From IMG/VR virus record IMGVR_UViG_3300000117_000004: a stretch of 38,360 bases of DNA; one strand, written 5' to 3'. A program made the translations under genes and the position numbers. Numbering within the stretch: the first letter of the stretch is position 1; each line of letters opens with the position of its first letter. The notes below the pieces were generated by a model that saw nothing but the letters and a program-made list of their open reading frames with translations, made no database searches and had not been told where the DNA came from. This stretch comes from a virus. Below, one piece after another: positions 9,841 to 38,360 of the stretch.

Positions 9841-9895
9841 TGGAGAGAGAGGGATTCGAACCCTCGAAACGCCTAAACGTTTACACGCTTTCCAA
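9841..9895 (-). other. attP core: 3' portion of a tRNA-Ser(GGA)-like sequence (not a complete tRNA)
   Basis: The minus strand reads TTGGAAA (anticodon loop, GGA), GCGTG, a long variable arm (AAACG..CGTTT), a T-arm GAGGG-TTCGAAT-CCCTC, and the acceptor 3' strand TCTCTCC. There is no matching 5' acceptor strand upstream. Confidence 0.7.
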
Positions 9896-9981
9896 ATATG
9901 CATTCTATCCTCGGTAAAACATGTCACCCTCTAATAATCATTACATTTTGATACATTATATAGCATATAAATACCTATTAG

Positions 9982-10001
9982 GGTGAGCCAAAAGTGAGCC
10001 A
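9982..10001 (+). repeat. Double-octamer motif GGTGAGCCAAAAGTGAGCCA, copy 2 (candidate integrase arm-type site)
   Basis: Exact repeat of 9756-9775 on the other side of the tRNA-like core. Confidence 0.6.
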
Positions 10002-10045
10002 AAAAAAGCCCAAGGAGAGGACAGCGAATCACAAACTCCCTGGGC
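10001..10045 (-). terminator. Rho-independent terminator of the late operon
   Basis: Minus strand: GCCCAGGGA, a 20-nt loop, then TCCTTGGGC (one G-U pair), followed by TTTTTTT. It starts at the stop codon of the endolysin-like gene. Confidence 0.6.
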
Positions 10046-19100: not shown

Positions 19101-22100
19101 TTTCGGTAACTCATCTTCTAAAATTGCTATAACAGCATCTTTATTAGCTTGTGTATCTAATTTAGGATGGCTTAAGCGTAAACCTAACATAGCACTATTT
19201 GGATTGGTCCTAGAATAGGCTACATTTTCTTTCTGTGTAATAAGCCCAATAGAATGCATTAAGCCTTTTACAGCTTGAGAACTTCCACGAACTTTTATGT
19301 TTCTACCATCTGTTTTAATTACTTTTAAGCCCATTTCTTTAGCTAATTTTTTAATTGGGCCATTTAATATTTTCTTATTTAATATCTCTTTTTGTCTTGG
19401 TCTAAGTCTTTCAAATGCATCACCATACTGCCTATACAAAGGACTATTCTTATCCATATCTAGTTTAAAAGATATTTGCGGCTTTATTAATTCCAATGCA
19501 TCTGGTATTGACTGCCCATCAGATGTTTCTGACATTCTAGCTATAGCTGTCCAACCAATAGCCTGGACCTGATGTGGCTTTAAGTTGCCACCTAAGTATC
19601 CCATTTCATTTAATTTATCAGTCAACTCATTCATGTAACGACTAGCATATTCATACTGAGTTTCTGAAGGACCAGCACCTTCCTGGTCAATAACTAACCC
19701 CTTAACATCATTCTTATTTACAGCTAGTCTTTTTAAAATATTCATTAGCTTTCCGTCTATAAAACCAGCATCTCTGAATGTGTGTCTATCAACAGCAACT
19801 GGCGCTAAACCAAATGGGTCATCCATCATCACAGTTCTTGTAGATTTGCCCAATGCACTATCTAAAAAGTCATATAGTTTTGCCCCAGCACCTTTTACTA
19901 CTCTTTTACCTTTTAAGGCTGATTTTATATTTTTAGCTACAGATTCGGTTCCAGGTGTTTTAAATGATGGTAGCGCGGCTTTTAATTGTTCACCAGCTAA
20001 GAATGTATTAGACAATGCTTGTAATGGACTAGCCTGGACATTACCAAGTAACCATGCAACCATATAATTGACTGCATCTTTTTCTCCAAATTCCTCAACA
20101 AAACTTGGATATGCTTCTTCATACCATACAGCGGCTTTCATTACCTCTTCATCATTCAATGTGCTTTCTACTTGACGTATCCAATCTTCTGGGGTTTTAT
20201 TTCTACCCAGAATCATTACACCACCATTTTTAAGTTTTACCTCTACTCTTTTATTAACTTGTTGACCTACACCCTTGGCTCTTTTCTTAGCCTTAGATAC
20301 TCTATTAGCCTTATCCTCATCGTTAACAACATCAGGATATAAACCAACAGCTTTTTCAACAACAGATGATTCTAACTGAAATGTTATATCATTGTTTCTA
20401 GGGTCAAATGTTCCTCTGTTAAATTGTGATTTTATTTGACCAGGCTCAAAAGCAACTACATGCATTGCTGGACCCATGATAGGGCTAAACATGCCAGTGT
20501 ATCTTTCTTGTGCATTGTTTAATACTATACCATCAAATCCAGCCGCTTCAATAACTCTTCTGATAAACTCATTACCCATTAGCTTACCATCTTCATTTTC
20601 AATATCTTGTACTAAATCAGATTCTTTCATTATCTTCATAAATTCTGACCCAGTCAATGCCATATCTGCCGCTGTTTCAAAAATTAAACCTTGTATTTGG
20701 CGCACAATATCTTCATCATATCTATAATTCAAATCAGCGTAGATGTCTGGTATTGCATCCATCATATCTATTACTGGACCAGATTCATCTATTACCTCGC
20801 CAGTCTCTTCATCTAATTCATATTCATATTCTAAATATGTATCTGGTGTCATATCACCATCTTTAGAACCTAGTACGAATGGATTCTGTACAGATAAATA
20901 TACTGGCATAATGTTGCCTTCATTCTCCATAAATCTATCCATCATAAATTGGTCATATTTTTGGTCTTGCCTGGCTGACCTACCATATTTTTCTCCAAAA
21001 AAGTCTTGTGCAGATTTTTGACTTTTAATTAGTAAATCTGGACTGCCTTCTGTTGCATAACTACGATTGACATCATTTATATTGCTAGAGAAATAAAATC
21101 CACTACCAAAGTCAGATTCGTGCCATGACTCAGCTATATCAAATTGTTGAAAATTTCTTGTTGTACCATGAAACATTCTTAATGGTGCGCCAGTGTCATC
21201 ATCTCTGGTTATCTTAGATTCTTTAAACCAGTTACGAAATTCTGGTGTATCTATATTTGTTTGAGGTTCTTTATTGCGAGTGCTATGCCAATTCTGGTAA
21301 TTGGGGTCATCATCCAACCTATCTAGTAGCTGATAGGATTTTGGGGCTTTGGGATTATTTGTTTTAGGTGGTGGGTTTTGAAATTGTTCCAAATATTCTT
21401 CACCATACAAAAATATATCTTCATCAACAGCTGTAGCAAATTTCTGATTTACTTCAATGCCTTCCGTTGGTCCGCGCATTTTATCAAAAACTAGCGTTCC
21501 ATCGCTCATTTGGCCCATTTTTTCGATAAATTCACTAGAAATATCCTCTGGAATGTAAATTGCATCTTGAAATTCTTTCGATATCGTTTTAAAGCCGCCT
21601 ATGGTGTATAAAATCGCATCTGAAAATAACTCAAGGTTACCATCGCCTTCCTCGGTAAATCGAAGATTTAGGCCCATTTCTGAAGCCTTTTTTCGAACAG
21701 ACCTTGCCCAAATTTCGATTTTGTCTGCTAAGGCTTTTTCTTCGGCATTTTTTGAGTTTCTAAGCTGTTTAAGTCTTCCTTCGACTGCTTCTTCAAGAAG
21801 TGTGCTTCTATCCGCTCTGCTGGTGAGCGATATATTGCCTTGAATATCATTCGCGCCTCTTGCAGTGACTGCGAATTGTCTTTCTCCATCTTTGGATTCG
21901 ACTTCTGAGAATCCATTGCTTTCTGGGTCATAACCTAACTCCCTTATTCTACTTTCTGAAAAAACTCTATCCCCATTGTCATCTGCATCATATTCTATCT
22001 TTAATGGGTTTGCTTCATCATCGTTTATTTCTTTTGCTGTTGTTTCTATTGTAATAGCATCTCTTTGCTGTACTTCAGCATCTACATCATCATCTCCTGG

Positions 22101-23252
22101 ATTCATATCCTCATTTGTAGCCATGATGCCATTGACTACGCTCTGTGCTGTAGCTGGTCCATATTCCGCAGTAACATCTACCGCCATCCTTCCACCTTGT
22201 ATTGGTAGTAAACCAGCGGCTGTTTGCTTTGCAGTTTCCCATGCTTCATCTACCATACTTTGCCAGGTCCTTGTAGGTACACCTTCTAGTACAGCACCTA
22301 CTTCTGTTGTTAGGAATTCTATACCTAACTGCAATTCTTCTTCCGCTATTTGTGTTGCCCAATCTTTTCCATATTGCTGTACCCATTTTCCTATCAAATC
22401 ACTAGTAGATTTTGCTATAACATCATTGGCTTTCTTTTGTATAGACTTGGGTATTGCTTTACCTATTTGCGCTTGTTCTACTAAGCCATAAAATAATCCA
22501 CCAGTATTAGCAAGTAAACTAGCTGTTCTTGGGTCCACATCCCTATCTAACATATTTTTAAGCATATTTCCAGCACCTTGCCTGGAAAAATAATAAGTAC
22601 TACCTACAGCAAATCCAGTAGCGCCAGAAATAGGAACTGTTACAGCCTCTTCTGGTACTAATGCTAATGGTGATAAATTTCCAACTACTGCCGCGCCAGT
22701 CATACCAGCCGCCGCTCCTGGTATACCAGCTTCAAGTCCTTTTGACATAGAACCAGCTAATTGACCAGATGCCCTAGCTACATACTCTAAAAAGTTATCA
22801 GCTTCAATTGGGTCATTTTGTGCTATTGCCTCATACTGACCATATGCTTTCTTTAAATCTTCAAAATCTTGGCTCCCAGGTACATTATGAAATGAGTCAT
22901 AAAAAGCTACATCAAAATCTGCGGCTTTTCTGGACCTCTTAAATGACTTCTTGAATGTACCAATAACACCTAAATCTGGTTTTGTAGATACTGGCTTCTT
23001 CTGTTCTTCTTTTTGCGCTTCCATCGCATCAAAGATTCTTTTGTTGTCGAAACCATCTTTGCGAAGTTTGTTTATCTGATTTAGTTCTTTAGGTGTTTTA
23101 AACTGGTCCTCTGGCTCAACAGCAAAATTAGGGTCATCGCCTAACTGCAAGATTTGATTGACTATAGATTCCTGATTTGCAGTGTCTTGCTTAGATGTGT
23201 CAGGACTAGATTTAAAATACTGACTTCTTAAAAAATCTTCAAACTCTGACAT
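16125..23252 (-). CDS. Giant (2375 aa) virion internal/ejection 'polyvalent'-type protein with an ADP-ribosyltransferase-like domain
   Basis: One uninterrupted ORF that makes up 19% of the genome, in the position of the T7 gp15/gp16 core proteins. Residues ~165-260 are Gly/Ala-rich hydrophobic segments. Residues ~668-958 read TPEFRNWFKESK..LRMFHGT..GSGFYFSS..VYLSVQNPF..GFDGIV..EPGQIKSQFNRGTFDP. That is the pattern I recall for the ART-PolyVal domain. Confidence 0.7.
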   Translation of the reverse strand: MSEFEDFLRSQYFKSSPDTSKQDTANQESIVNQILQLGDDPNFAVEPEDQFKTPKELNQINKLRKDGFDNKRIFDAMEAQKEEQKKPVSTKPDLGVIGTFKKSFKRSRKAADFDVAFYDSFHNVPGSQDFEDLKKAYGQYEAIAQNDPIEADNFLEYVARASGQLAGSMSKGLEAGIPGAAAGMTGAAVVGNLSPLALVPEEAVTVPISGATGFAVGSTYYFSRQGAGNMLKNMLDRDVDPRTASLLANTGGLFYGLVEQAQIGKAIPKSIQKKANDVIAKSTSDLIGKWVQQYGKDWATQIAEEELQLGIEFLTTEVGAVLEGVPTRTWQSMVDEAWETAKQTAAGLLPIQGGRMAVDVTAEYGPATAQSVVNGIMATNEDMNPGDDDVDAEVQQRDAITIETTAKEINDDEANPLKIEYDADDNGDRVFSESRIRELGYDPESNGFSEVESKDGERQFAVTARGANDIQGNISLTSRADRSTLLEEAVEGRLKQLRNSKNAEEKALADKIEIWARSVRKKASEMGLNLRFTEEGDGNLELFSDAILYTIGGFKTISKEFQDAIYIPEDISSEFIEKMGQMSDGTLVFDKMRGPTEGIEVNQKFATAVDEDIFLYGEEYLEQFQNPPPKTNNPKAPKSYQLLDRLDDDPNYQNWHSTRNKEPQTNIDTPEFRNWFKESKITRDDDTGAPLRMFHGTTRNFQQFDIAESWHESDFGSGFYFSSNINDVNRSYATEGSPDLLIKSQKSAQDFFGEKYGRSARQDQKYDQFMMDRFMENEGNIMPVYLSVQNPFVLGSKDGDMTPDTYLEYEYELDEETGEVIDESGPVIDMMDAIPDIYADLNYRYDEDIVRQIQGLIFETAADMALTGSEFMKIMKESDLVQDIENEDGKLMGNEFIRRVIEAAGFDGIVLNNAQERYTGMFSPIMGPAMHVVAFEPGQIKSQFNRGTFDPRNNDITFQLESSVVEKAVGLYPDVVNDEDKANRVSKAKKRAKGVGQQVNKRVEVKLKNGGVMILGRNKTPEDWIRQVESTLNDEEVMKAAVWYEEAYPSFVEEFGEKDAVNYMVAWLLGNVQASPLQALSNTFLAGEQLKAALPSFKTPGTESVAKNIKSALKGKRVVKGAGAKLYDFLDSALGKSTRTVMMDDPFGLAPVAVDRHTFRDAGFIDGKLMNILKRLAVNKNDVKGLVIDQEGAGPSETQYEYASRYMNELTDKLNEMGYLGGNLKPHQVQAIGWTAIARMSETSDGQSIPDALELIKPQISFKLDMDKNSPLYRQYGDAFERLRPRQKEILNKKILNGPIKKLAKEMGLKVIKTDGRNIKVRGSSQAVKGLMHSIGLITQKENVAYSRTNPNSAMLGLRLSHPKLDTQANKDAVIAILEDELPKKFMPSVYFDDGALMIPTNVNRVDINNYSTQLTSAIKRVMKEVGMELNLDELGINYERTNNNWKKDSAGQRYRNKLSDSFGPDIQKRLDNHYGPQVEQQVREALEKKAKQDQLTYQLGPNPNLAAQIKSASKTNSLDLSEESVSRLVRRKIIDALTPIISWQEDIESQFLEDNKVTEERDVALAAELAVGKMPERISDFNNETISGKNKSSFVNRLITNVGISVDDFSRYLHAEHAAERNAYIASLPNTKYKDGGSGMSNSEAKRIKAELNKKYGLKVLRQYTKEFREKFIDAELQVRLDAGLISQKDFDSLKGNVFKNYVPLFREMDDSDSLYESSGYLFMDRGKGFNIFGGKEYARAVGSKRPVKNIIVSAAERMHSAIIRAEKNEVNKKVLALVEAYPSEAFEVKGIPHNPVYNENGEISHMTPMSAKDSEGNKVDQKNVLNVKVDGKTKRIIFKGIKGERIARALQGLGVSKAIPVLNHFNTYLRYVNTIYNVDFIFSNFVRDIQTAGINITAEQGGDIRNQAMSPTNLKQAWKAVYNIVRNDEIDSEWGELYNRMRLAGGKTGFFDIQSIEAKLEGLEKSLANVGQKRNTVKEGAKNILGFVESLNEATESAVRLTLFKAMIDAGYSDSKAASGAKNVTINFNRKGEWGPVLNSLYLFANAGLQGGYRIMTVVGKSKKAQQAVATLTTMGFMESWINHMSDDDEEYKKLGNYIKDNYFVARYGEGDKYFKMRLPYGFNVFKVVGNITADLAWAAHSGEAIDKSDQLFRLLTAINASYNPLGDSPIEQMITPTILKPFIQLGANKNFYGGPIYPEVYQEAPADNQLAWDNTPEIYKKSAEGWFLATQNRFLYDENGEIVGGQYGPGDGFGDISPETLEYFTEYLSGGLGKSVARLISAPIDLYKGNLQVDEIPLIRNFFGEFKKNSELQTIFEMRNNSKRKKYSQLEQSKFSRYIQSYLDKNPELTEEEVDKMINMENRFYKNQDELY

Positions 23253-25282: not shown

Positions 25283-27576
25283 TATGGACTCGGATTGGTG
25301 TTATAAACTCTAAAACCATATAGGCCAAGTTCATCGTCAGTAGCAAAAAAATCAGCGGCTTTAAAATTTGTTAAATCTGTAAATACATACTTGGTCCATA
25401 CATTCTGTATTAAATCATATGCATATATGTTAGAAGAGGTGTCTCCAAACTTGCATATAAGCCTATCTCTTTTAATGTCATACACTACTTTGCTACTACT
25501 TTTATTAGTAATACCTTGATAGATATCCTCAATAGGCTTAGTGATTGGAACAAAAGTAAAATCTGGCCTTATCTGAAACATATTATCATTAGCGCAGAAA
25601 AATAGATTATCTTTTGCATTTACAATACTTTCTGGAGCGATACAGCCTACACTTGTATTAACCTCTAACAATGTAAACAATGAAGGGTCACCCGATGATA
25701 CATCTAATCTAAATACACCCCTAGTCATAAAAACCACCAGGTTATTTAATATCCTATCTAAGCCATTTATAAATCCACCTTGCTGGTCCAAGATTCTAAT
25801 AAAATTAGTAGAAGGTATAATATCAGGCTGTCCTGGCTCACTATACATTACAAAATCAGGATGATTCTCAGGATTCCCATTTGGGTCTACTTGCACATTA
25901 CCAACAAAATGTGTATCGCCAATCATTTGACTATATTTATACCTAGTGTCTACAGTTGCATCTGTTCCTAGAAATGGCGCTAAAAAACTATTAGTATACC
26001 CAATGTCATAAAAGTGCAATGTAGAATGAGTGCTATCTCTAGTTAAAACATAATCTTTATATAAATCAACAGAATCACTATCAGAGTATGCATCAATATT
26101 ATCTAACCTTACAGCTTTACCAACTGACTCTAACACAATTCTTTGTCCACCACTAGCATTAACAGCTATGTAACCATTTGCGCCATTTATACCAAATCTA
26201 TCATCACTAGGCATATCATATATCAATGCTTTGTCATGCCACACAACATTAAATAAATCTGTTCTAGCATTACTTGCTGGAACTTCTCCAGTGAATTGTG
26301 GTAGGTTATCTGAACTTCTTTCCCCAAAATAAATTCTATGTATTTTACATTGTCCGTTAAAAACATAATCAGGGTCCGATGAACCAGTTTGTGCTTGTGC
26401 AATACCTTTTTGTAATAATGCTAAAAATGCAGAATCATTTAAAGGACCATCACTCGCATCAAATGTCCAAGTATTTCCACTGGAATTAGTACCATCTATA
26501 GGTGTACTCCCACCATATATAACTGGACTATTTCCTGGGCTTTGGAATGAATCTAAGACTCCATTTTCGTCAGGCATTAATACATACCAAGACACTCTAA
26601 GATTATTATAAGGAATTGTAGTTGTAACATTAGGCATACTTAAAACACCATCACTTGCTGTAAGGCTAGAATAGTTATCTATAAAAGTATTACTAAATAC
26701 ATGCCCATCACCCTCATACACTGTTTTATCTTTAAAAATAATATTATCAGTATCATTAGATGTGTTTATTGGGACCTCGCCAATCTGATAATAATTATCG
26801 TCATTACCAGTCTCCCTATAAATCTTTACACTAGTAATTCTAGGGTTAAAAGGATATGATTTATTTGGCGCTGTTCCACTACCTGATTGATTCGGCAGTC
26901 TAATAGATATTTTATTGCATTTATTAGCATTGCCCATGGTAACAGTTTTAAATGCAGTATCTAATGGCAGTTCTTGCGCCCCATCAAAGATTGGACTAAG
27001 TTTATAATTATATGTATTGTCAGCTAAAGTAAGTCCAGTATTAGCACCTAATGTGACAGCAGTAAGAGATTGAAAATCCATTTCAGCTGTTGTTGGATGT
27101 ACTGGTGTAGCATTTTGAAAAACATATTCATTTATTGTATCACTACCTTCAAAAAATTTTCTGCTTATATGCTGTAAAATCTTTGCTGGGTTACTTAAAT
27201 TATCTGTAGAAATTCTAAAGTCTTGCCCATGGTCATTTAAATCAACTCTAGCACTGGATGTAACTGCACTCCCACAATCTTGTGGAGAACTAAAATTACT
27301 ATTTAATTTTTTTATCTTATTATTAACAGCATCAAAACCAACCCAGATAGCTGGTATCTCAGCATTACTTGTATCTAAGTTAGATGGGGACCAATATTGT
27401 AACTGAGTTAAGCGAACACTAGTAAGTTCTGTTGCGCTACCTCTTCCATCATACTTGGTTAATGTACCTGGTGTATCTAATGAGAAGTTTTGATTTTGTC
27501 TAGAGTATTCCAGACCAATATCAGTAGGGTCTGCTTTCGTTGCAAGTCCTTGGAATTCCTTAACCTCTATTAACAT
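25282..27576 (-). CDS. Tail tubular protein B-like (nozzle) protein
   Basis: The call rests on size (764 aa) and position after the capsid/adaptor genes, in T7-like order. No rigorous homology check was possible. Confidence 0.45.
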   Translation of the reverse strand: MLIEVKEFQGLATKADPTDIGLEYSRQNQNFSLDTPGTLTKYDGRGSATELTSVRLTQLQYWSPSNLDTSNAEIPAIWVGFDAVNNKIKKLNSNFSSPQDCGSAVTSSARVDLNDHGQDFRISTDNLSNPAKILQHISRKFFEGSDTINEYVFQNATPVHPTTAEMDFQSLTAVTLGANTGLTLADNTYNYKLSPIFDGAQELPLDTAFKTVTMGNANKCNKISIRLPNQSGSGTAPNKSYPFNPRITSVKIYRETGNDDNYYQIGEVPINTSNDTDNIIFKDKTVYEGDGHVFSNTFIDNYSSLTASDGVLSMPNVTTTIPYNNLRVSWYVLMPDENGVLDSFQSPGNSPVIYGGSTPIDGTNSSGNTWTFDASDGPLNDSAFLALLQKGIAQAQTGSSDPDYVFNGQCKIHRIYFGERSSDNLPQFTGEVPASNARTDLFNVVWHDKALIYDMPSDDRFGINGANGYIAVNASGGQRIVLESVGKAVRLDNIDAYSDSDSVDLYKDYVLTRDSTHSTLHFYDIGYTNSFLAPFLGTDATVDTRYKYSQMIGDTHFVGNVQVDPNGNPENHPDFVMYSEPGQPDIIPSTNFIRILDQQGGFINGLDRILNNLVVFMTRGVFRLDVSSGDPSLFTLLEVNTSVGCIAPESIVNAKDNLFFCANDNMFQIRPDFTFVPITKPIEDIYQGITNKSSSKVVYDIKRDRLICKFGDTSSNIYAYDLIQNVWTKYVFTDLTNFKAADFFATDDELGLYGFRVYNTNPSP

Positions 27577-29506: not shown

Positions 29507-30481
29507 TTAGTATGCAGAAGGAAGGCCATGAACACGACCTAACATTCTTGGGTTACTGCAAGTCAAAGCACCTAGCCAATAGATGTGCGCTACAGCGGCA
29601 TCTTGGTTTACTGGCTTGTTAAAACCTTGAAAAGCAAAGTTACGAGAAGCATGATGTCTAAACTTTAAATACTTAGAGTTTAAGAAGTACATGTTTCCAT
29701 CAGGACAATGGTCATCAACAACTACTGGTGTTCCTCTATAAAGAAGATTAGTAAAACCAGCGTCAGCCAAAGACTGTGAACTAGCACCAAATCTTTTTTG
29801 TGCAGATAAAGATTCTTCATATGCATCAAAAATAACTTGAGTAGTTACAATGATATCTGGCTTGTCGTTGTCAATTGAACATTTACCATACATCTCACGA
29901 ATGATGTCTTGAATTTCACCAGCCGCTAAGAGGTCATATGTCCAAACGCCACTATCATTAGCCTCAGACTGGTCAGAAACTTGACCATCCCACCAGGTGT
30001 AAGTACTACTATCAATACCACCTAAACTTCTGTCAGCTTTAACAATATGTTCTAATCCAAGAAAACCATTCCCACTACCACTTTCGGTACCATATAACTG
30101 AGTACCAAAAAGGTCTTTGAGAGATTTTTCTGCATTTTTAACCTTTGCAGAGATAAGGTCTATTACTCTTTCACTTCCAGAGTTCAATGCTTCTTCCCTA
30201 CCTGAGTAAGTAATAGAAGCATGACACTGAACCCAGTCATAAGCGGCATCAGTGAACACTTCTTGAGGAGAAGTATCTAATACATCATATCCGCTATAAA
30301 AACCATTGGCTGAGGACTTCGCATATTCAATAGGCTGAAGTACTTTGTTACCAGAGGCTATAGGTTCAGACTGTGACAACATTTTAAAAGTCAAAATGTT
30401 TGAATTGAAAATATTGTCAACTAACACTGGAATAAATTTGTCACGAGTAACAGCGGTTAAACTATCATAAGAAAGTGCCAT
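29507..30481 (-). CDS. Major capsid protein
   Basis: 324 aa, directly after an acidic scaffold-like gene and downstream of the portal. It has a strong RBS context. Size and order are typical of HK97-fold capsid genes. Confidence 0.65.
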   Translation of the reverse strand: MALSYDSLTAVTRDKFIPVLVDNIFNSNILTFKMLSQSEPIASGNKVLQPIEYAKSSANGFYSGYDVLDTSPQEVFTDAAYDWVQCHASITYSGREEALNSGSERVIDLISAKVKNAEKSLKDLFGTQLYGTESGSGNGFLGLEHIVKADRSLGGIDSSTYTWWDGQVSDQSEANDSGVWTYDLLAAGEIQDIIREMYGKCSIDNDKPDIIVTTQVIFDAYEESLSAQKRFGASSQSLADAGFTNLLYRGTPVVVDDHCPDGNMYFLNSKYLKFRHHASRNFAFQGFNKPVNQDAAVAHIYWLGALTCSNPRMLGRVHGLPSAY

Positions 30482-30502
30482 TTTATATTCCTATTCTGTT
30501 AA

Positions 30503-31384
30503 TTATTCATAAAACTTATAGTTCTTCAATGCATCGGACCTGGCATCCTTATAACTAGATGGTTTTCGCGTTGGCTCTTCTCGAAGCGCCTTTGCTGGAC
30601 CTTCTGGTTCTGGTATGCTTTTCATGGCCTTTGCATTTCTAGCCCTATTTACTGCGGTCTTAAAAGCACTATCCTCAGCTGATGTATGATAGGTTAAAAC
30701 AAATGCATCCTCTAAACCTTCTTGACCTACAAAGCCTTTTTCAATGGCTGTGGTAATAACCTCATCCATTAAATCTTGGTCCTCTAGTTCGGGATGTGTT
30801 TGCTTGAGATTTGCAAGGTCCTGGAAAACTTGCTGGTCGGCTTCTTTGACTGCTAGTTCTTCTTCTTTCTCTTGCTGTATCTCGTTTAACCTTTCTTCCA
30901 ACTCCTGGACCTTATCTAGGTCCTTCGTGTCCTGGTTCTGTATCTCTTCCGCTACACCTGGATTGAAGATAGGATGGTCATCTGGCAAGACATCTCTAAG
31001 TGCATCTATGGCATTTTCATCGTTCTGTAAATCGCGCCAAATCTGGCTTTCGTCTTGGAAAGCTTTACGTTCAGCGGACAACTGCTGTGCCTTTTCCGTA
31101 TTGGATTTTTGCCAATCAGATTTATTATTAAATGCCTCTAAAGCTTCACTTATTGTGTCGATATCATATTCAACACCATCCAGTTCTAAGCTTTCGACTT
31201 CTACCCCATCATCCAGGTCTGTTGTTGCTACTTCTTCTAACTGCTGTGATTGGTCCACATTGACATCATCAGTTGGGGAAAGTACCTCATCCCCTTGCCC
31301 AATAGGTTCTGTATCAGTTAAACTCGCTATTTCATCTGAAGTTAAAGTAACACCAGAATAGCTTGTTCTTATTTCTTCTGACAT
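30503..31384 (-). CDS. Scaffolding protein
   Basis: 293 aa, very acidic, predicted helical/coiled coil (ELEERLNEIQQEKEEELAVKEADQQ). It lies between the portal and the capsid. Confidence 0.6.
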   Translation of the reverse strand: MSEEIRTSYSGVTLTSDEIASLTDTEPIGQGDEVLSPTDDVNVDQSQQLEEVATTDLDDGVEVESLELDGVEYDIDTISEALEAFNNKSDWQKSNTEKAQQLSAERKAFQDESQIWRDLQNDENAIDALRDVLPDDHPIFNPGVAEEIQNQDTKDLDKVQELEERLNEIQQEKEEELAVKEADQQVFQDLANLKQTHPELEDQDLMDEVITTAIEKGFVGQEGLEDAFVLTYHTSAEDSAFKTAVNRARNAKAMKSIPEPEGPAKALREEPTRKPSSYKDARSDALKNYKFYE

Positions 31385-31440
31385 AGATTCTCCTATTTAT
31401 TGATTAAAATTTTTATTTGGTTTGCAGATGTATCAAAGAA

Positions 31441-31575
31441 TCAATATGAAGATTTAGAAGGTTTTTTATATTTAACCTTAGCTTTCTTCTTATGCTTCTT
31501 GACTTTGACTTTTTTCTTAGATGTCTTTGATGTTTCCATTACACCTACAGCTGTCTTACCTTTTTTATCTTTCAT
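31441..31575 (-). CDS. Lys-rich mini-protein, 44 aa (MKDKKGKTAVGVMETSKTSKKKVKVKKHKKKAKVKYKKPSKSSY)
   Basis: Hand-translated. The ATG lies 2 nt after the upstream stop. Confidence 0.4.
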   Translation of the reverse strand: MKDKKGKTAVGVMETSKTSKKKVKVKKHKKKAKVKYKKPSKSSY

Positions 31576-31577
31576 TA

Positions 31578-31862
31578 TTAGTATCCGCGCTTTTTATTAA
31601 TCTTATCTACTACTTTGTTATACAACTTAGGACCTTGTTTCATAACAGCTTCTGTCAACGCTTGTGCGCCCATCATCTGACCCAAGATTTTTACCTTTTT
31701 CTTCATAGACTTACCTTTTTGAGCGTGTACTTGTGCTACCAATGTAGAAGCTACCTGACCAGCTAATTTTCGAGAAGGATAGTCGGCTATATATTTCATT
31801 TTCTTTAATTTTTTCTTTTTCTTTTTTGCTAAAGAGTTCATGTATTTTTCTTTATCCATCAT
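31578..31862 (-). CDS. Lys-rich basic protein, 94 aa
   Basis: Starts MMDKEKYMNSLAKKKKKKLKKMKY. ATGA overlap with the upstream mini-ORF. Confidence 0.55.
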   Translation of the reverse strand: MMDKEKYMNSLAKKKKKKLKKMKYIADYPSRKLAGQVASTLVAQVHAQKGKSMKKKVKILGQMMGAQALTEAVMKQGPKLYNKVVDKINKKRGY

Positions 31863-32008
31863 TTCCCCACTTGCTTCATTGCAGTTTTATGTGCTTTGTC
31901 AAATGACATACCACGATTAATTAATGCTTTCATCACTTTCATATGCTTAGAAGTATGGTGCTTCCTATGCTTTTTAAGCATCTCCATATATTTCTCTTTG
32001 TTATGCAT
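31859..32008 (-). CDS. Basic mini-protein, 49 aa (MHNKEKYMEMLKKHRKHHTSKHMK...)
   Basis: Hand-translated. It shares the KEKY-x-x-x-L-x-KK motif with its neighbours. Its ATG overlaps the upstream gene's end by 8 nt. Confidence 0.4.
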   Translation of the reverse strand: MHNKEKYMEMLKKHRKHHTSKHMKVMKALINRGMSFDKAHKTAMKQVGK

Positions 32009-32195
32009 AACTTTTCTTTTTCTTCTTCTTTTTCAAAGATGCTAAATACTTTTCTTTTTTACTAGTTTGTGATTCTTTTAAAGCTTTAGCAGTCGGCGCA
32101 CCTTTTTCACCAGGCTTTCTCATTTTCTCGCCACTACCAGCTTTTATTCTTTTTCTTTTGGCATGTATATTTGCCCATAAACCTCTTTTAGCCAC
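32001..32195 (-). CDS. Lys-rich basic protein, 64 aa
   Basis: GLWANIHAKRKRIKAGSGEKMRKPGEKG...KKEKYLASLKKKKKKKSYA. GTG start overlapping the upstream stop. Confidence 0.5.
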   Translation of the reverse strand: MAKRGLWANIHAKRKRIKAGSGEKMRKPGEKGAPTAKALKESQTSKKEKYLASLKKKKKKKSYA

Positions 32196-32457
32196 ACTTA
32201 CATCTCCATTTTCTTAATGCCTTATTTATTCTGCTGTTAGGGTCATTAGCTGTTTTAGCTGATGTCAACCTTTTTTTCATTCCGCACATTCTAGCGCAAA
32301 AACTTTTACGTCTTGATTTAGCTTTACCTTTTGGATTTTTCTTTGTTACTGGTGCTTTTAGGTTACCCCCAGTGGCACGATTATAACTGGCACGACCTTT
32401 AGCATTAAGGCCACCTGATTCAGATTGACCTTCTTTTTTAGTCCATGCCTGGCTCAT
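32188..32457 (-). CDS. Basic protein, 89 aa
   Basis: GGLNAKGRASYNRATGGNLKAPV...RRKSFCARMCGMKKR...ALRKWRCKCG. Its start overlaps the end of the portal gene. Confidence 0.55.
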   Translation of the reverse strand: MSQAWTKKEGQSESGGLNAKGRASYNRATGGNLKAPVTKKNPKGKAKSRRKSFCARMCGMKKRLTSAKTANDPNSRINKALRKWRCKCG

Positions 32458-34222
32458 TGCCTACACCTTTAATGTTTTGTGCTAATTGTGGATTAGATTG
32501 TAGTTGTTGAAATATTTCATCCTCTGACATACCCTCAAACATTGATGGGTCCATTTGCTGACTATTCTGCTTTTCTGTTTGCTTATTAATCAGCCTTTCT
32601 ATTCCAGGTAATTGCATATTCTCTAAAATATATTCTGGGTCTTGTATCAATCCAGCTTGTGCTAAGGATAATATCTTATCTTCTACATAAGCACGATTGT
32701 CAGGTAACATACTACCCACCCTGGCTCTAACCATTGTGTCAATATCATTGAACTCCATACCCATGTAATTAATCTGCGCTTCGTTGCCTTCTGCATCTTT
32801 CGTGGCCAGGGTGTGGATAGAACTACCCATATTCTTAATCATTGCAATCCACATCTGTCCTAATATCTGCATAGCCGCATCTAATTGTCTGGCTTTGAAA
32901 TCTATCTTACTTGTTGCCGCGCTTCTATAAATCTGCGCTTGTACACCACTTGTTACGTTAGGTTCTTGCTTACCCATTGTAGCTTTATTTACACCACTAA
33001 TAGTTTCAAACATATCTACTAGTAGTTGATAAAAGTTAAAAACATAACCAGGAATACTAGCTGGTTGTAACATCTGTACTGCACCAGGCCCACGCTTTCT
33101 TATAACAGCACCTGGCTTATTATTTATCTGGTCTTGCACATCTGCTGTTTCATCTACAACAAACATTGGGTTAGCAATTAGATGTACATTATCCATGACC
33201 TGAGATGCAATTCTGTCTAGTGCAAGATTTATACTCTTTAGTCTTTTCGGTTCGGGTTTACCCCAGAACGAATGTGCGCTACCACCATTCTTCATAACAA
33301 CGTAAGGAAATGGATAAGGACATCTATTCATTTTATCCAGGAACTGATACTTACTAGGCCCATCGTATAGTATGATGTCGTTTGCCATGCAAATTTTTCG
33401 TAGCCCACCTGGATATTTTGGTTTGCCAACCTTCGATTTATCAGAATCTTCATCTGTATACTCGACACTTCCGTCTCTCATATACACTTCAACCAGTAAG
33501 GCCCGTTCTTCCAAATTTTGCATAGCCTCAGTTTCACCTTCAAAGTAATTAGTCTCTGTCCCATGTGAATCAGTTACCTGGATAAGTGCTTTATCACCTT
33601 GTCTTACTTCAGTGATTTTTAAGGCTTCATGTTCCGATAGTTTACCCATCGGCTTTACTAAATGTCCCTTTTCGGGAAATAATTCTTGTATTTCATACAT
33701 TGGCCTTGGGGCCATGTGGATAATCCAGGAAGCGTTTTCTAATTTTGTAGCGCTAGGATTAACATAAAAACTAAATGGGTCCACTATATCGCAATCAGGT
33801 AAATCATCATGCATGTTCCAGTTTAGCTTAACGATACCAGTACCATAGACAAGATAGTCTGTGAGCCATTCTGGAACCAATGTTGCCATATCGCGCATAT
33901 ACCACAAATCATCTATTTGCGCTTGTAAAGTGTTGGCAACGAATTTAGACTCATCTGAAGCACCCACTGGGATAACATCAATCTTCGGAGGCTGAGATGA
34001 CATAATCGGTATCTGGGTATCAATAACATTAGCTATCATGTCTAAGGTTAACTGGTTTTTATATTCTGGCATGGATAAGCCTTCCCAATGTTCACCCATA
34101 TATAACTTTTCTGATTCGCGCCATAACTGACTAGTTTTACGTCTAGCCCTTTTAGCGGAATCCATCATACCATTAACTTTTTTGATTAAATCTCGCTCTT
34201 CTTGACTGGGCTTGTATTCCAT
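32438..34222 (-). CDS. Portal protein
   Basis: 594 aa, downstream of TerL and upstream of the scaffold and capsid genes. Size and position are typical. Confidence 0.65.
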   Translation of the reverse strand: MEYKPSQEERDLIKKVNGMMDSAKRARRKTSQLWRESEKLYMGEHWEGLSMPEYKNQLTLDMIANVIDTQIPIMSSQPPKIDVIPVGASDESKFVANTLQAQIDDLWYMRDMATLVPEWLTDYLVYGTGIVKLNWNMHDDLPDCDIVDPFSFYVNPSATKLENASWIIHMAPRPMYEIQELFPEKGHLVKPMGKLSEHEALKITEVRQGDKALIQVTDSHGTETNYFEGETEAMQNLEERALLVEVYMRDGSVEYTDEDSDKSKVGKPKYPGGLRKICMANDIILYDGPSKYQFLDKMNRCPYPFPYVVMKNGGSAHSFWGKPEPKRLKSINLALDRIASQVMDNVHLIANPMFVVDETADVQDQINNKPGAVIRKRGPGAVQMLQPASIPGYVFNFYQLLVDMFETISGVNKATMGKQEPNVTSGVQAQIYRSAATSKIDFKARQLDAAMQILGQMWIAMIKNMGSSIHTLATKDAEGNEAQINYMGMEFNDIDTMVRARVGSMLPDNRAYVEDKILSLAQAGLIQDPEYILENMQLPGIERLINKQTEKQNSQQMDPSMFEGMSEDEIFQQLQSNPQLAQNIKGVGNEPGMD

Positions 34223-34444
34223 CTAATCTCCTGACTGCTTTAAATCACTTAAGCCACTAGCTGTGGTAATAATATCCATATATGCCTCACGAACATCCGC
34301 ATCCATTTCATTAAGTTCGTCATCTTCTGTAATTTCAACCCTAAACCATTCATTAGTAGCAAAATCATATTTTTCTATTACCCTCGTAACCCTGGCACTT
34401 CTACTTTTTGACTTTCGAACTTTTGCATCAGTTTTTGTATCCAT
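34223..34444 (-). CDS. Small acidic hypothetical protein, 73 aa
   Basis: It lies between TerL and the portal gene, and overlaps the TerL 3' end by 67 nt in another frame. Confidence 0.4.
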   Translation of the reverse strand: MDTKTDAKVRKSKSRSARVTRVIEKYDFATNEWFRVEITEDDELNEMDADVREAYMDIITTASGLSDLKQSGD

Positions 34445-35739
34445 GGTTTGGCTTCTTCTTCCTCTGGTTTACCTATCGCCATCATGGCATATCTGACAGA
34501 ATCCAAAAGATGGTCAGGTCCAGTTGTATCTAAATCTTCTGGCCGCCTAATGTCATGAACAAGCATCGGAATTGTCTCGATGAATTTCCTACAAGTCTTG
34601 AAAACAAAAAACTTAGGTGGCGTTTCTTCATCCCATTTTAGATACTCGCGCAGAAGGTTCCAACCATTCAAGCGGTTATTATTAGCTTTTATTGCATTTA
34701 TCCCACCTTTTCGTAACAAATCTGCTATTGCCATATGGGACCCAGCAACACCATCTGACTTATTCATATTTTGCGGATTACGAATCCACATACTGGGGTC
34801 ACCTAAAGTCATCCTATAGTCATCATCGCCACTAATAGCGTTAATTGCATCTATATGACCAGATAGTTCCATTTCGGCCACATAGTACTCCTTGTATAGA
34901 TAAACATCGCCTTTGGGGCTTACAGCTAACCAACATGTTGCAAATGGTGCTTTATATCCATAGTCTATGCCTCTAAACTTGTACCAGGTACTAGGAATCT
35001 TAAATGGTTCAACAACATGCACATCATATCGCCACTGGCTAAAATATTGTCCATAGTAGACATCCCAATCACCATCTAGCCATGCGCGGCGCAATTCTTC
35101 TGGTAAACCTTTTAACATGTCCATATATCCTGGGTCCTCGCGCATAAGTGTAGGATTATCATGTATCTTACTTGGTATAAATATTCTTGTTCTATTTGTT
35201 ATGGCATCATAGTGAGTTTTTTCTGGTTCATTTGATAAAAATCTAGCTTTGAACCAGTTATGACCTGGACCCCCTGGATTACATGTCAGGAATATTTGTG
35301 GTGACAATCCTATTGTACTACGACAACTAGAAATAAGTTTTAAATAATCTTCTTCATCACCAATCAATGTAGCTTCCTCAATACCCATTTTATGGTATTC
35401 GTGACCCTGATATTTTTGGTACGCTTGTTTATCCATTAAATGCCCAGTTCTGATAATTGCACCAGTGGGGAATCTAAATTCTGCTGGATTACCAACCACA
35501 TCCACATCCAGATGTTTATACATTTGTGTAGCCCTATCTATGTAATCGCGTAAGTCATCGTAGTTTCTACGGATAATAAGGCCCCTATAAAGTGGATTAT
35601 TAAGGTATTCGGGGTCTACCATCCATGCCATTAGGCAACTTGATTTACCACCACCCCTGGCACCACCAAATGCTATTTCAAATTCTTGTCTTGCAAGTGC
35701 AAATTTCTGTCTTGGGTGAGGTTCCCAATGTATTTGCAT
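34378..35739 (-). CDS. terL: Terminase large subunit
   Basis: Walker A-like FGGARGGGKSS near the N-terminus. A later FRGIDYGYKAPFA and a C-terminal D-rich nuclease-like part. 453 aa, in the canonical position. Confidence 0.85.
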   Translation of the reverse strand: MQIHWEPHPRQKFALARQEFEIAFGGARGGGKSSCLMAWMVDPEYLNNPLYRGLIIRRNYDDLRDYIDRATQMYKHLDVDVVGNPAEFRFPTGAIIRTGHLMDKQAYQKYQGHEYHKMGIEEATLIGDEEDYLKLISSCRSTIGLSPQIFLTCNPGGPGHNWFKARFLSNEPEKTHYDAITNRTRIFIPSKIHDNPTLMREDPGYMDMLKGLPEELRRAWLDGDWDVYYGQYFSQWRYDVHVVEPFKIPSTWYKFRGIDYGYKAPFATCWLAVSPKGDVYLYKEYYVAEMELSGHIDAINAISGDDDYRMTLGDPSMWIRNPQNMNKSDGVAGSHMAIADLLRKGGINAIKANNNRLNGWNLLREYLKWDEETPPKFFVFKTCRKFIETIPMLVHDIRRPEDLDTTGPDHLLDSVRYAMMAIGKPEEEEAKPWIQKLMQKFESQKVEVPGLRG

Positions 35740-35957
35740 TACTGCACCCCCCAGTATTCGCTTCTTCTGTACTTGCTTTGTTCGTACTTAGTCATATCCT
35801 TCCAGCATTTAGGTAGGTATTCAGCACGACTATCACAACCACTTGCCAATCCGCAGTAGGTATATGTATCCTTATCAGCTACACCAGTGCGAATGTTGTA
35901 ACTGGATTTGGTAGCAAAAGCGCATTTACGATTTATCTTCGGGCATACATCAAACAT
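35739..35957 (-). CDS. Small Cys-rich hypothetical protein, 72 aa
   Basis: ORF with an ATG start. Its stop shares one nucleotide with the TerL ATG. Confidence 0.45.
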   Translation of the reverse strand: MFDVCPKINRKCAFATKSSYNIRTGVADKDTYTYCGLASGCDSRAEYLPKCWKDMTKYEQSKYRRSEYWGVQ

Positions 35958-36187
35958 ATTCTTCCCTTGGTTTTATTGGTTGTTTTCACCACTATAAAAA
36001 GTTTTTTCATATTCTGTCTGGGACTCCTACATGATATTCGGACCGATGGGACCCGACCAATGGGATGCCCCCCCTCGCAAATAATTTAATCGGTGTCGGT
36101 ACACATTATAAATATTTTCACGAAGCAGACTGACCCAGCCCATTACAATAACATGCAAACCTCCTCGGTACAGCATCATCTGGCTCA
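35958..36187. other. 230-nt non-coding, partly G+C-rich spacer with tandem GACCRATGGGA repeats
   Basis: GACCGATGGGA (36041-36051) and GACCAATGGGA (36055-36065) are followed by a C-run. No credible ORF lies on the late strand. Confidence 0.5.
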
Positions 36188-36200
36188 CTATTGGCTCACC
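36181..36200 (-). repeat. Double-octamer motif, copy 3 (minus strand GGTGAGCCAATAGTGAGCCA)
   Basis: The plus strand reads tggctcactattggctcacc. This is 19/20 identical to the two attP-flanking copies and spans the stop codon of the TerS-like gene. Confidence 0.6.
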
Positions 36201-36553
36201 TCTGGCCCAGGGTCACTAACATCACCAGGGGATTCAGTAGGCAGAAAAGTTTCGCTCACAGCCTGGCCAGTCGTACTGATTTTAGGCGGGTCCAGCGGTG
36301 CTTTCTCTGGCAGAACAATGACCCCAGTTATTCCCTTTTGTTCTACTTCTAATTGCATCGCCTTTAAATCTGGGACCAGCTTTGGCAGTAGGATGCGCCA
36401 CGCTGATACCTGGCGCTTATCATCATCATTCATAGCTACATCAAATAGCTTCTGTATTAATTCGTTCTTCTGTGGGTGGTTACGAACCAGGTCCTTCACT
36501 GAAGTCTTAGGTCTTCCAGTGGGGTTACCTGACTGGCCTTTTGTGAATGGCAT
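36188..36553 (-). CDS. Terminase small-subunit-like protein (N-terminal FTKGQSGNPTGRPK motif)
   Basis: The motif F-x-KGQSGNP-x-GRPK is one I recognise from small phage proteins encoded upstream of terminase large subunits. It is the first gene of the late operon, and it is G+C-rich. Confidence 0.45.
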   Translation of the reverse strand: MPFTKGQSGNPTGRPKTSVKDLVRNHPQKNELIQKLFDVAMNDDDKRQVSAWRILLPKLVPDLKAMQLEVEQKGITGVIVLPEKAPLDPPKISTTGQAVSETFLPTESPGDVSDPGPEVSQ

Positions 36554-36715
36554 TCTATTGTTTTCCTATTGTTAATTAACCTGAGTATATGGTATCCAGG
36601 TGTACGCTTTCAACACATGATTGTACTATTTTTAAATATTACTTGCATAGTATAGTGTTGCAGTGTTACACTCTTGCCATACAAACAACCGAAAAAAAAC
36701 AAACAAGGAGATTAT
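36554..36715. promoter_or_regulatory. Divergent early-right / late promoter region carrying the same operator half-sites as the immunity region
   Basis: ATTGTACTAT at 36621-36630 and ATAGTATA at 36648-36655. Plus-strand candidate promoter: TTGCAT (36644-36649), 17 nt, TACACT (36667-36672). Minus-strand candidate: TTGAAA (36609-36614), then TATACT (36584-36589) with a 19-nt spacer. Confidence 0.5.
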
Positions 36716-37057
36716 ATGTTTTTAGTTACTGATTATAAAGTTAAAACCAACATTACAACTGATTCTTTTAAGAAGTTCATTAAGAAGTGTATCGACTATG
36801 ATATCTTCGCTAACATGGACCAGGGTGTTATCAAGTTTCGTGCTGACTATGTTGTTGACATGCGACCAGCACATAGTGAAGCCAACTACGCTGTCTGGAA
36901 TTGGATGGGTACACTCAGACTAGTCGATTACAGCCAACCAGATGCATACTCAAAGCAGTCAGGTGACTGGCCAATAATTACTGACATCTATTTCAGTAAG
37001 GAACTCAACAATACAATCTGCATCCATACTACTCTCGATAGTTCTGAAGAAGAGTAG
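36716..37057 (+). CDS. First early-right gene, hypothetical, 113 aa
   Basis: The ATG at 36716 is preceded by AAGGAG. The track start at 36674 is TTG. Confidence 0.6.
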   Translation: MFLVTDYKVKTNITTDSFKKFIKKCIDYDIFANMDQGVIKFRADYVVDMRPAHSEANYAVWNWMGTLRLVDYSQPDAYSKQSGDWPIITDIYFSKELNNTICIHTTLDSSEEE

Positions 37058-37059
37058 CA

Positions 37060-37143
37060 TCCATACTGATGATGGCCCAGGTGGTTCCTGGGCCGAAACA
37101 CTAAGTGTCTATGGTAACCAAAAAAAACAAAAGGAACAGCGAT
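37060..37143 (+). promoter_or_regulatory. Early-operon intergenic element, copy A, with hairpin 37074-37094
   Basis: GGCCCAGG-tggtt-CCTGGGCC. The rest aligns with copy B, including the leader aaggaacagcgatATG. Confidence 0.6.
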
Positions 37144-37569
37144 ATGAAATTAGCAAATAGATATTCAAAGGGTGTCACATTACATAGTAAGTCAGAAGGT
37201 GACTTAAGATATTCTCTCAGACGTAAGGTCATTAACTTAATTTATGAAACCAACAGAAGATTACAAGCGCTTGGAATGGCTCGTCTACCTAGAATTGAGG
37301 TCAGGGTTCTTAAGGAAGCAGATTATGCTGGTATGGCTTACAGAGGTACAAACATTATTCATATTACTGAATGTGCTATTAACTATCAAACAGCTAAACA
37401 GCGCCTAGTAATCTGGCATGAGATTGTGCATGGCTTAGGATGGGGTCATGTTGAGGGCTGTAAGCTTATGGATGCTAACCCTTGGCGCTTATGGTCCAAT
37501 GGTGTTGAGGAATCAGAAGTCTGGGAAACATTTCTAAAGTATGTCACCGAGTACCAGCAGAAGAATTAA
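37144..37569 (+). CDS. Small SprT-like / metzincin-motif zinc metallopeptidase, 141 aa
   Basis: HEIVHGLGWGH (nt 37417-37449) matches HExxHxxGxxH. The upstream segment LPRIEVRVLKEADYAGMAYRGTNIIHITE resembles the SprT-like N-terminal pattern. The ATG at 37144 follows the conserved leader. Confidence 0.6.
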   Translation: MKLANRYSKGVTLHSKSEGDLRYSLRRKVINLIYETNRRLQALGMARLPRIEVRVLKEADYAGMAYRGTNIIHITECAINYQTAKQRLVIWHEIVHGLGWGHVEGCKLMDANPWRLWSNGVEESEVWETFLKYVTEYQQKN

Positions 37570-37571
37570 TC

Positions 37572-37654
37572 TCCATACTGATGATGGCCAGGGTGGTTCC
37601 CTGGCCGAAACCAATAGGTCTATGGTAACCAAAAATAAAACAAGGACAGCAATC
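37572..37654 (+). promoter_or_regulatory. Early-operon intergenic element, copy B, with hairpin 37586-37606
   Basis: GGCCAGGG-tggtt-CCCTGGCC. Same locus as 23-105. Confidence 0.6.
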
Positions 37655-38248
37655 ATGAACATACAAGAAAAAGAAACTTTTAAAAATAGGACTCTAACCC
37701 AAATAGCGCTTAACACCGCCATTAGATACTTCATGGATTTTGCATACAATTCATTACAAGATATGTGGCAGATGAAGAAGGATGGTACTTTCTACAAGCA
37801 AACCCAGGATAAGATTGATACATACATCAAGTTAATTCTGGAATGTACCAGTGACCATATGGCTAAAGTTTATGGCGCAGATATTAAGGGTTTGAATGCA
37901 TATGTAGGTAATGGCTATAAAGGCCCAGGAAACAATCAAAAGTTTAACTTTAGGGTTAGTGCTAGTTATTGTGATACAACTGGTAATGAGCCGCAATGGC
38001 TAACCCAGGGCAACTATATGTACGTTGGTAAACAAGCGCCAGAGTGGCTTAATGCAGATGAATTTGAAGAGAACAATAAGAAATATATCCAGGACCAAAA
38101 AGATAAATATCCTATCGTATCTGTAAAGGATGCTATGACAGCACAACGACATTACATGAAGCTTAAAAAAGCTATCGATGATGCAAGACAAGCAAGGCGC
38201 GATTTTGCATACAACTTTGGTTCAGAATACTTAACAAACAACATTTAG
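37655..38248 (+). CDS. Hypothetical early protein, 197 aa (same gene as 106..699)
   Basis: Identical sequence within the terminal redundancy. The longer track ORF from 37541 is read-through from the previous gene's region. Confidence 0.6.
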   Translation: MNIQEKETFKNRTLTQIALNTAIRYFMDFAYNSLQDMWQMKKDGTFYKQTQDKIDTYIKLILECTSDHMAKVYGADIKGLNAYVGNGYKGPGNNQKFNFRVSASYCDTTGNEPQWLTQGNYMYVGKQAPEWLNADEFEENNKKYIQDQKDKYPIVSVKDAMTAQRHYMKLKKAIDDARQARRDFAYNFGSEYLTNNI

Positions 38249-38262
38249 AAAGGGACAGCGAC

Positions 38263-38360
38263 ATGAACTTAGAACTAGGAATATATTATTACATAGATGA
38301 TAATGGTAACAAGGTTTATGACCTTGATGTTATAGGCGATGAAATAGCAGATAAGCTAAG
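38263..38360 (+). CDS. 5' part of the 55-aa ORF (same gene as 714..881), truncated by the window end
   Basis: Identical to 714-811. Confidence 0.4.
   Translation, partial: MNLELGIYYYIDDNGNKVYDLDVIGDEIADKL

Follow-up and report, generated by a model that had tools for sequence, protein, structure and literature searches.

The window analysed here is the whole 38,360-nt stretch of the IMG/VR virus record IMGVR_UViG_3300000117_000004, which represents a circular, 37,549-bp phage genome (an 811-bp wrap-around makes positions 1-811 identical to 37550-38360). Its subject is a tandem double octamer found twice around a phage attachment site (attP)-like module and a third time at the 3' end of a DUF5681 gene (36188-36553, minus strand; Pfam PF18932), which had been called TerS-like in an earlier, sequence-only reading of the same DNA. 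Reading leftward from a divergent control region (36554-36673), the DUF5681 gene comes first; it is followed by a 230-bp spacer, an open reading frame (ORF) of 72 aa, and the genes for TerL and the portal. The gene for the integrase (Int), int (1591-2697, plus strand), comes seventh in the rightward early operon, whose start is in the same divergent region. It encodes a heterobivalent tyrosine integrase (PHROG_1; Pfam Phage_integrase), in which codons 1-62 (1591-1776) correspond to a predicted arm-binding N-terminal domain (N-domain). The spacer adjoining the third site (35958-36187) has a G+C content of 43% compared with 36.7% for the genome, in line with its earlier description as G+C-rich, and the content reaches 49% between 36040 and 36200.

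The pattern GGTGAGCCAA[A/T]AGTGAGCCA occurred exactly three times in the genome and was never matched in 100 dinucleotide-preserving shuffles, which bears out the claim that a threefold recurrence of the 20-mer is not chance. The 20-mer GGTGAGCCAATAGTGAGCCA lies on the minus strand at 36181-36200 with no mismatch, and the copies at 9756-9775 and 9982-10001, both on the plus strand, carry one mismatch each, an A instead of a T in the spacer. The 19/20 identity reported by the sequence-only reading was therefore correct. The third site (36181-36200, minus strand) consists of two tandem 11-bp arm-type units (GTGAGCCAATA GTGAGCCAG), inverted relative to the attP arms and located 10.8 kb and 26.2 kb from attP around the circle. 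As had been noted, it spans the stop codon of the DUF5681 gene; the TAG at 36188-36190 falls in the spacer between the two octamers.

The octamer GTGAGCCA occurred nine times versus 0.82 expected, with six of the nine occurrences inside the three double sites. Outside them, the number of lone octamers was at chance level (3 found versus 0.8 expected). The lone TGGCTCACTAT that had been placed in the nozzle-like gene does exist, at 25834-25844 and not at 25844-25854 (10 bp off). L058 and L069, relatives with the same motif, have GTAAGCCA in place of the lone octamer at 33861, so it is not kept. Lone octamers were rejected as additional sites, being at chance level and not conserved. When GTGAGCCAA was searched with at most one mismatch, 14 matches versus 7.25 expected were obtained, and no further double site was found.

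The other two copies flank the attP-like module, as the sequence-only reading had stated; they are in direct orientation, with a tRNA-Ser 3' segment between them. The P arm (9754-9776, plus strand) contains two tandem arm-type units (AGGGTGAGCCAAAAGTGAGCCAA) directly after the stop codon of a CI-like HTH_3 gene, and the P' arm (9980-10002, plus strand) is an identical 23-bp copy with a degenerate third unit at 9991-10013. Both arms sit about 70-120 bp from a tRNA-Ser(GGA)-like segment (9842-9929, minus strand; ARAGORN), the presumed attP core. Only the 3' half of this segment is canonical (T arm, anticodon arm to acceptor 3' strand), as expected of a phage attP with the 3' portion of a tRNA gene in it. 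The Rfam tRNA model gave no listing at the gathering score, nor at E<=10 in a 401-bp search. Equivalent tRNA-Ser(GGA/GCT)-like segments are carried by relatives. The int gene is not adjacent to attP and lies 7 kb from it.

The phage belongs to an abundant, uncultured marine family that is common in Tara and JGI marine metagenomes. A megablast search with positions 30000-38360 gave no match to a cultured relative, tblastn with Int or the DUF5681 protein against 50,697 phage records returned nothing, and TerL is at most 36% identical to any phage record. Relatives were taken as syntenic contigs from IMG/VR, ENA, JGI and Tara, and they form a close group and a diverged group. The close relatives, with 80-99% nucleotide identity (L006, L008/L058, L011, L013, L069 and L089), all keep the third copy, and L008/L058 keeps all three copies. 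The diverged lineages, whose integrases are 36-49% identical, keep the three-site layout, each with its own motif.

In total, 14 motif lineages were distinguished, each with a repeat at the homologous third-site position and with a motif sequence that differs between lineages. The motifs are TAGCCTCGAAT in lineage B (L051), CTGGGACA(A/G)AA in lineage C (L056), GTGGACAAA in lineage F (L060), TGGTTCAAT in lineage G (L066) and TGGCTCAAT in lineage H (L067). The third site is made of two tandem 11-bp units in every lineage except D (L053), which has a single motif of about 21 bp, TTTTGCCACTGGTAAATATT. For motifs E, I, J and K to N, the contigs do not include attP, and the motif was taken from the third-site position. 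Where attP was on the contig, the third-site motif was the same as the attP arm motif in seven of seven lineages, and the orientation was the same in every one of them, with direct arms and an inverted third site. Loss of the site from relatives that retain the attP copies was looked for; the site was kept in every lineage and co-varied with the arm motif. No family member examined was without a repeat at this position.

Natural swaps among these lineages were used to ask which protein the motif follows. Int was split at residue 62, and the identity of the N-domain was compared with that of the rest of the protein. L060 and L062 share a motif (F), with N-domains that are 98% identical and remainders that are 72% identical. 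L063 and L060 have different motifs (E and F, respectively), and here the N-domains are only 47% identical while the rest is 93% identical. Between L066 and L067 (69% in the N-domain and 96% in the rest), one base is changed in every unit of all three sites; the DNA around their third site is 97.9% identical across an 8.9-kb block, and both units of the site carry the T-to-C change of the attP arms. One base is also changed between L059 and L060 (68% and 67%, respectively). In these comparisons, motif specificity appeared to follow the N-domain of Int (aa 1-62) and not its core-binding or catalytic domains, which agrees with the earlier naming of the integrase as a candidate reader. The integrase of L091 is 49% identical to that of the window overall and 39% in the N-domain, yet L091 has the arm motif of the window, GTGAGCCAAAA. 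The two proteins have the strand YYRYK..G(K/R) in common, and nearer N-domains with YYLYR read GTGGACA.

The same swaps bear on the other candidate proteins. Between L066 and L067, the HTH_17 protein is 100% identical, residues 1-99 of the HTH_3 protein are 100% identical, and the ORF that follows int (post-int ORF) and the DUF5681 protein are each 93% identical. The DNA of L060 and L063 aligns from about Int codon 41 through the post-int ORF at 89.6%, and since this ORF is conserved despite the different motifs, it cannot be what reads them. In the early region from the DUF5681 gene to int, no ORF is common to L060 and L062, two phages with the same motif. The DUF5681 protein keeps 72-98% identity in lineages whose motifs are unrelated, with its first ~85 residues near-invariant, and thus cannot account for 14 unrelated motifs. 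As judged from these alignments, the motif tracks neither the remainder of Int nor any of the other candidates, which were the DUF5681 protein, the post-int ORF, the CI-like HTH domain and the HTH protein of the excisionase family.

The N-domain of Int was predicted to be a separate, lambda-Int-like arm-binding domain of three strands and a helix. In the AlphaFold2 model, the strands span residues 7-12, 15-20 and 32-36 and the helix spans residues 42-60, with a predicted local distance difference test (pLDDT) score of about 80. The best Foldseek matches of Int in the PDB were full-length lambda Int structures (1z1g, 1z1b and 5j0n), over about 370-380 columns. The Pfam Arm-DNA-bind_1 match was weak and below the cut-off (E=0.0055). 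The co-variation with residues 1-62, together with the lambda-Int-like fold, strongly suggests that the motif is an Int arm-type site.

The whole Int family has Ala or Ser at the expected position of catalytic Arg I (TGL[A/S]P.DA) and Tyr at the expected position of His II (residues 227-237, 258-260 and 316-321), and R258-x-K260, R320 and Y351 are invariant. The replacement of Arg I presumably resembles that of the Bacteroides integrase IntDOT (Ser259, with Arg285 substituting). By analogy, such an IntDOT-like active site would hint at a Bacteroidota host.

The coding sequence around the third site also points to selection on the DNA. The DUF5681 protein of the window has 121 aa, about 28 aa fewer than the 136-168 aa of most other lineages, because motif A, that of the window, puts a TAG and, one codon later, a TGA in frame. 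The ORF runs through the motif for 15-30 further codons in lineages B, C, E, F, I and J, and it stops just ahead of the motif in lineages D, G and H. Following the third site of the window, GATGATGCTGTACCGAGGAG is a decayed remnant of the DUF5681 tail, and the C-terminal tail of the protein was predicted to be disordered. These features strongly indicate that a requirement for the third-site DNA overrides the coding of DUF5681. A flipped box beside the site (TACCGAGGAG versus CTCCTCGGTA) was also considered and rejected; it reflects how different lineages encode the C-terminal tail of DUF5681.

Several candidate control elements lie between the third site and the late genes. A bipartite GC-rich element, GGGGCATCC-N6-TCGGGTCCCAT (36045-36078, minus strand), consists of columns that are invariant across the lineages aligned. 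The third site is about 108 bp upstream of this element, and the interval measures 97-112 bp in 12 of 14 lineages. The element is preceded by a hairpin and T-run in most lineages and followed by a conserved block, GA(C/G)TCC(T/C)AGACAGAATATGAAAAAACTTTTTATAG. This block holds a sigma-70-like promoter candidate (CAGACA-18-TATAGT; 35991-36020, minus strand; consensus scan) ahead of the late operon of the 72-aa ORF and TerL. The DUF5681 protein is a candidate reader of the GC element, which in that case would be a pac site or an upstream element of the late promoter. A search of Rfam for a structured RNA in the GC-rich spacer gave nothing credible.

The earlier designation of the DUF5681 gene as the first late gene is doubtful. 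Its own promoter candidate (TTGAAA-18-TATACT; 36584-36613, minus strand; consensus scan) lies in the divergent control region, and in most lineages the hairpin and T-run and a separate promoter-like site intervene between the gene and the late genes. An operator-like box, ATTGTACTATTT, is common to the cI/cro intergenic region (8898-8930) and the DUF5681/early divergent region (36617-36649), and an inverted copy, CATAGTACAATG, is also present in the cI/cro region. The common box suggests one repressor for both control regions, so the DUF5681 gene looks like an immunity-controlled early leftward gene. In the cI/cro region, the CI-like HTH_3 gene ends just ahead of the first arm copy, and the HTH_17 gene diverges from it in the cro position. 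The HTH_17 protein (67 aa; 8586-8789, minus strand) matched the excisionase family TIGR01764 with 34.5 bits (cut-off 28.8). It may be a dual protein of the Cox/Apl type, acting as Cro and as recombination directionality factor (RDF), and it did not co-vary with the 11-bp motif.

Taking the sequence comparisons together, we conclude that the third copy is under selection to match the Int arm motif. By its sequence and its predicted reader it is an arm-type site, yet it is not part of attP. The reading that we favour with moderate confidence is that the third double octamer is a selected arm-type site of the phage's own lambda-type Int that lies outside attP and damps leftward late transcription or packaging. 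Binding of Int to the third site is the firmer part and seems very probable, while the damping of late transcription or packaging by the bound protein is put forward tentatively.

Under the favoured reading, Int produced from the rightward early operon would use its N-domains to bind as a tandem pair at a point about 370 bp into the leftward unit. The bound pair would stand about 108 bp upstream of the GC element and about 160-190 bp upstream of the promoter-like site of the late genes (TerL, portal and capsid). When Int is abundant, during the establishment of lysogeny, the pair would hold down leftward read-through or the use of the late promoter or pac site. It might act alone as a roadblock, or it might bridge to attP or to a factor on the GC element. 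The decision to integrate would thereby be tied to the shut-off of the packaging and structural genes. A further step, in which Int serves as a lineage-specific regulator or specificity subunit and its diversifying arm-binding domain reads a dedicated operator that gates late transcription or the initiation of packaging, is rather speculative. If true, the N-domain and arm motif would form a second, immunity-like specificity system with at least 14 types, some of them between otherwise 98%-identical phages.

Several observations weigh against this reading. With attP 11 kb and 26 kb away and the nearest promoter-like site at a distance of about 160-190 bp, direct occlusion of a promoter is unlikely, and two N-domains side by side may make a weak roadblock. 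Promoters and terminators were called from consensus matches alone, and the conserved distance between the site and the GC element could reflect shared ancestry and not constraint. For candidate readers, the comparison of lineages E and F covers only the genes present on the contigs. In addition, the C-terminal half of the HTH_3 protein diverges between lineages G and H (65.6% identity overall), and the HTH_3 gene physically adjoins the P arm. Finally, neither an integrated prophage nor a host was found: all contigs with the Int of the window were at most 50 kb long, and the metagenome scan yielded short contigs only. Exact-protein look-ups (Int, P0001, P0003, P0008, P0009 and P0058) showed no integrated form among the contigs displayed; P0058 was also listed on two contigs of 50-200 kb, the longest of 89.6 kb, outside those displayed, and look-ups with P0080 led to 54-kb contigs of a different phage type. 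With no integrated form found, the assignment of attP rests on anatomy alone.

Among the alternatives, the one that survives best, although we consider it unlikely, is that the third copy is an accessory element of a pac region. The DUF5681 protein, if it is TerS, would bind the GC element, and Int, bound about 108 bp away, would modulate this by blocking terminase assembly until the lysis decision or by providing lineage-specific self-recognition for packaging. The proposal suits a site located inside, or at the end of, the gene that immediately precedes the small ORF and TerL, as P22, SPP1 and P1 have their pac sites within or beside terS. Moreover, conservation is unusually high for both the DUF5681 protein and the GC element, the distance between the third site and the element is near constant, and lambda provides a precedent for an architectural protein common to recombination and packaging in its use of IHF at attP and cosB. 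However, the identity of DUF5681 as TerS is that of a candidate: no PHROG or NCBIfam function and no PDB sequence match were found for it, and its structure model (pLDDT 57) was too poor for a fold search. The GC element is also directly upstream of the promoter-like site and would fit a transcription element equally well. As for the motif itself, it does not behave as a repeat read by the packaging protein, given that residues 1-85 of DUF5681 are near-invariant across at least ten lineages with unrelated motifs.

It is less probable still that another phage protein reads the motif, namely the DUF5681 protein, the CI-like HTH_3 protein, HTH_17, or the post-int ORF product as a Cox/Apl-type RDF. 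RDF sites, such as those of Apl (PMC7498355), are typically direct repeats in tandem with a spacing of one helical turn. HTH_17 matches an excisionase family, and the first arm copy abuts the HTH_3 gene, whose product diverges in its C-terminal half between G and H. Nevertheless, DUF5681, HTH_17, residues 1-99 of HTH_3 and the post-int ORF all stay conserved where the motifs differ, and the two phages with motif F lack a common early ORF. A CI/Cro operator is not expected to change between L066 and L067, where those 99 HTH_3 residues are identical despite the different motifs, and the box common to the two control regions (ATTGTACTATTT) is a different sequence from the motif; co-variation of the motif was found with neither HTH_17 nor the post-int ORF, as would be looked for in an RDF site. 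The sequence-only reading had offered an RDF, TerS or a late regulator as readers. The RDF is contradicted by the identity of HTH_17 between G and H and the conservation of the post-int ORF between E and F, and TerS or a late regulator by the natural swaps and by the conservation of DUF5681 across unrelated motifs. Identical sites on both attP arms also fit Int arm sites better than RDF sites. The RDF sites of lambda, L5 and P2 occupy one arm.

That the third copy is a secondary recombination target (a pseudo-att site giving inversion or deletion) or a functionless relic appears very improbable. Every lineage has the copy in the opposite orientation to its attP arms, and 13 of 15 bases (ATGyTkTACCGAGGA) are common to the flank of the window site and the 5' half of the tRNA-like segment (p=0.03, uncorrected). 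Local alignments against the attP interior, judged with shuffles, gave no significant core-like similarity in the other six lineages, though, and the CCGAGG box is accounted for by the codons of the C-terminal tail of DUF5681. A relic would not have come to match the arm motif again in seven or more lineages, nor would it change in concert with the arms within 97.9%-identical DNA, and no rearranged genome forms were seen among the contigs fetched. A chance or low-complexity recurrence of a tandem 11-bp repeat is hardly credible: the exact 19-mer does occur in viral contigs that are unrelated and in diverse bacterial genomes (25 stretches), with about nine chance matches estimated in 596 Gb (both strands, uniform base frequencies), but the shuffled genomes held none and co-variation across lineages cannot arise by chance.

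The favoured reading, an Int arm-type site outside attP, can be compared with known systems. The arm sites of lambda Int (P1, P2 and P'1-P'3) and those of HK022, L5, P2, Tn916 and IntDOT are likewise short, non-core tandem motifs with a phasing of about 11 bp on both sides of the core. Lambda-type arm sites are read by a separate N-terminal domain of three strands and a helix, and lambda Int is the best structural match here. The third copy, on the plus strand GGCTCACTAT, has TCACTAT in common with what we take to be the lambda arm consensus, C/AAGTCACTAT, possibly by coincidence. In contrast to lambda-type arm sites, the third pair of the window phage lies 11 kb and 26 kb from the core, outside attP, is present family-wide and appears to co-evolve with the N-domain, and int is 7 kb from attP. 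The integrase itself also differs, as it lacks Arg I and has Tyr at the His II position.

Regulation of transcription by an integrase that occupies arm-type sites has been described for IntS of KplE1/HK620 at PintS (PMC2951348), and Int of satellite P4 is treated as a regulator at Pint (Piazzolla 2006, as cited in PMC2951348). In both, the sites are the attL or attP arms themselves and overlap the int promoter, whereas the extra site of the window phage is far from att and int, in the 3' end of another gene and upstream of the late/packaging operon. In phage 186, the RDF Apl has sites at att and in the lysis-lysogeny control region, arranged as direct repeats one helical turn apart (PMC7498355). 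Like 186 Apl and P2 Cox, the present system would involve one recombination protein with att and regulatory sites, but the motif here tracks Int and not an RDF. The use of IHF at lambda attP and cosB is similar in that an accessory DNA-binding component of site-specific recombination has a further site next to the region recognised for packaging; IHF, however, is a host protein with a generic consensus, while the third site is specific to the phage lineage and appears to follow a domain of a phage protein. To our knowledge, the combination of att sites with regulatory sites has been described for RDFs such as Apl and not for Int. Arm-type sites are textbook parts of attP, and outside att we know of them only where an att arm overlaps the int promoter. 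What appears to be new here is a dedicated, universally conserved and co-evolving arm-type site far from attP, beside a putative late/packaging control region.

If this is true, a tyrosine integrase has a second task within the programme of lysis and lysogeny. At least 14 natural pairs of motif and N-domain are available in the family, and they amount to a natural recognition code for arm-binding domains. Switches of a single base or a few residues (TGGTTCA versus TGGCTCA; YYRYK versus YYLYR) make the DNA code of the arm domain directly testable, and such a code would be useful for engineering orthogonal integrases.

Some further observations concern other sequences. The bacterial genome scan was made with the 19-mer as the query, and a cross-phylum meaning of the 19-mer was considered and dropped, as independent, unrelated matches were about as numerous as the database size predicts. 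The 19-mer GTGAGCCAAAAGTGAGCCA encodes GEPKVSQK at the 3' end of genes for prophage integrases of 369-380 aa that are mutually 42-62% identical. These loci comprise L003 (13962-13980), L004 (242-260), L001, L007, L010, L026 and L038, with L026 and L038 in a Corynebacterium genome. In one prophage contig the 19-mer is repeated near both ends, beside a tRNA-Leu gene. It looks like part of the att site of those prophage integrases, which are unrelated to the Int of the window.

Within the structural gene block of this podovirus-like 37.5-kb genome, a single ORF of 2375 aa (16125-23252, minus strand) was found, and portal, major capsid protein and adaptor families of the SU10 type were found in relatives. 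An ORF of 493 aa (12004-13485) holds an array of nine copies of a 30-nt periodic repeat with 60-70% identity (12808-13421, minus strand), and its product is probably a repetitive, tail-fibre-like protein. Leaders of about 75 nt with the hairpin GGCCAGGG-TGGTT-CCCTGGCC (23-97 and 37060-37135, plus strand) precede two early genes. In relatives, hairpins with AAGGACAGCGAA in the loop occur three to five times between early genes (in L066 at 8448, 9316, 9939, 11107 and 17630), and the same type of hairpin also adjoins the P' arm (10003-10044 in the window). These repeated hairpins could be terminator, processing or antitermination sites.

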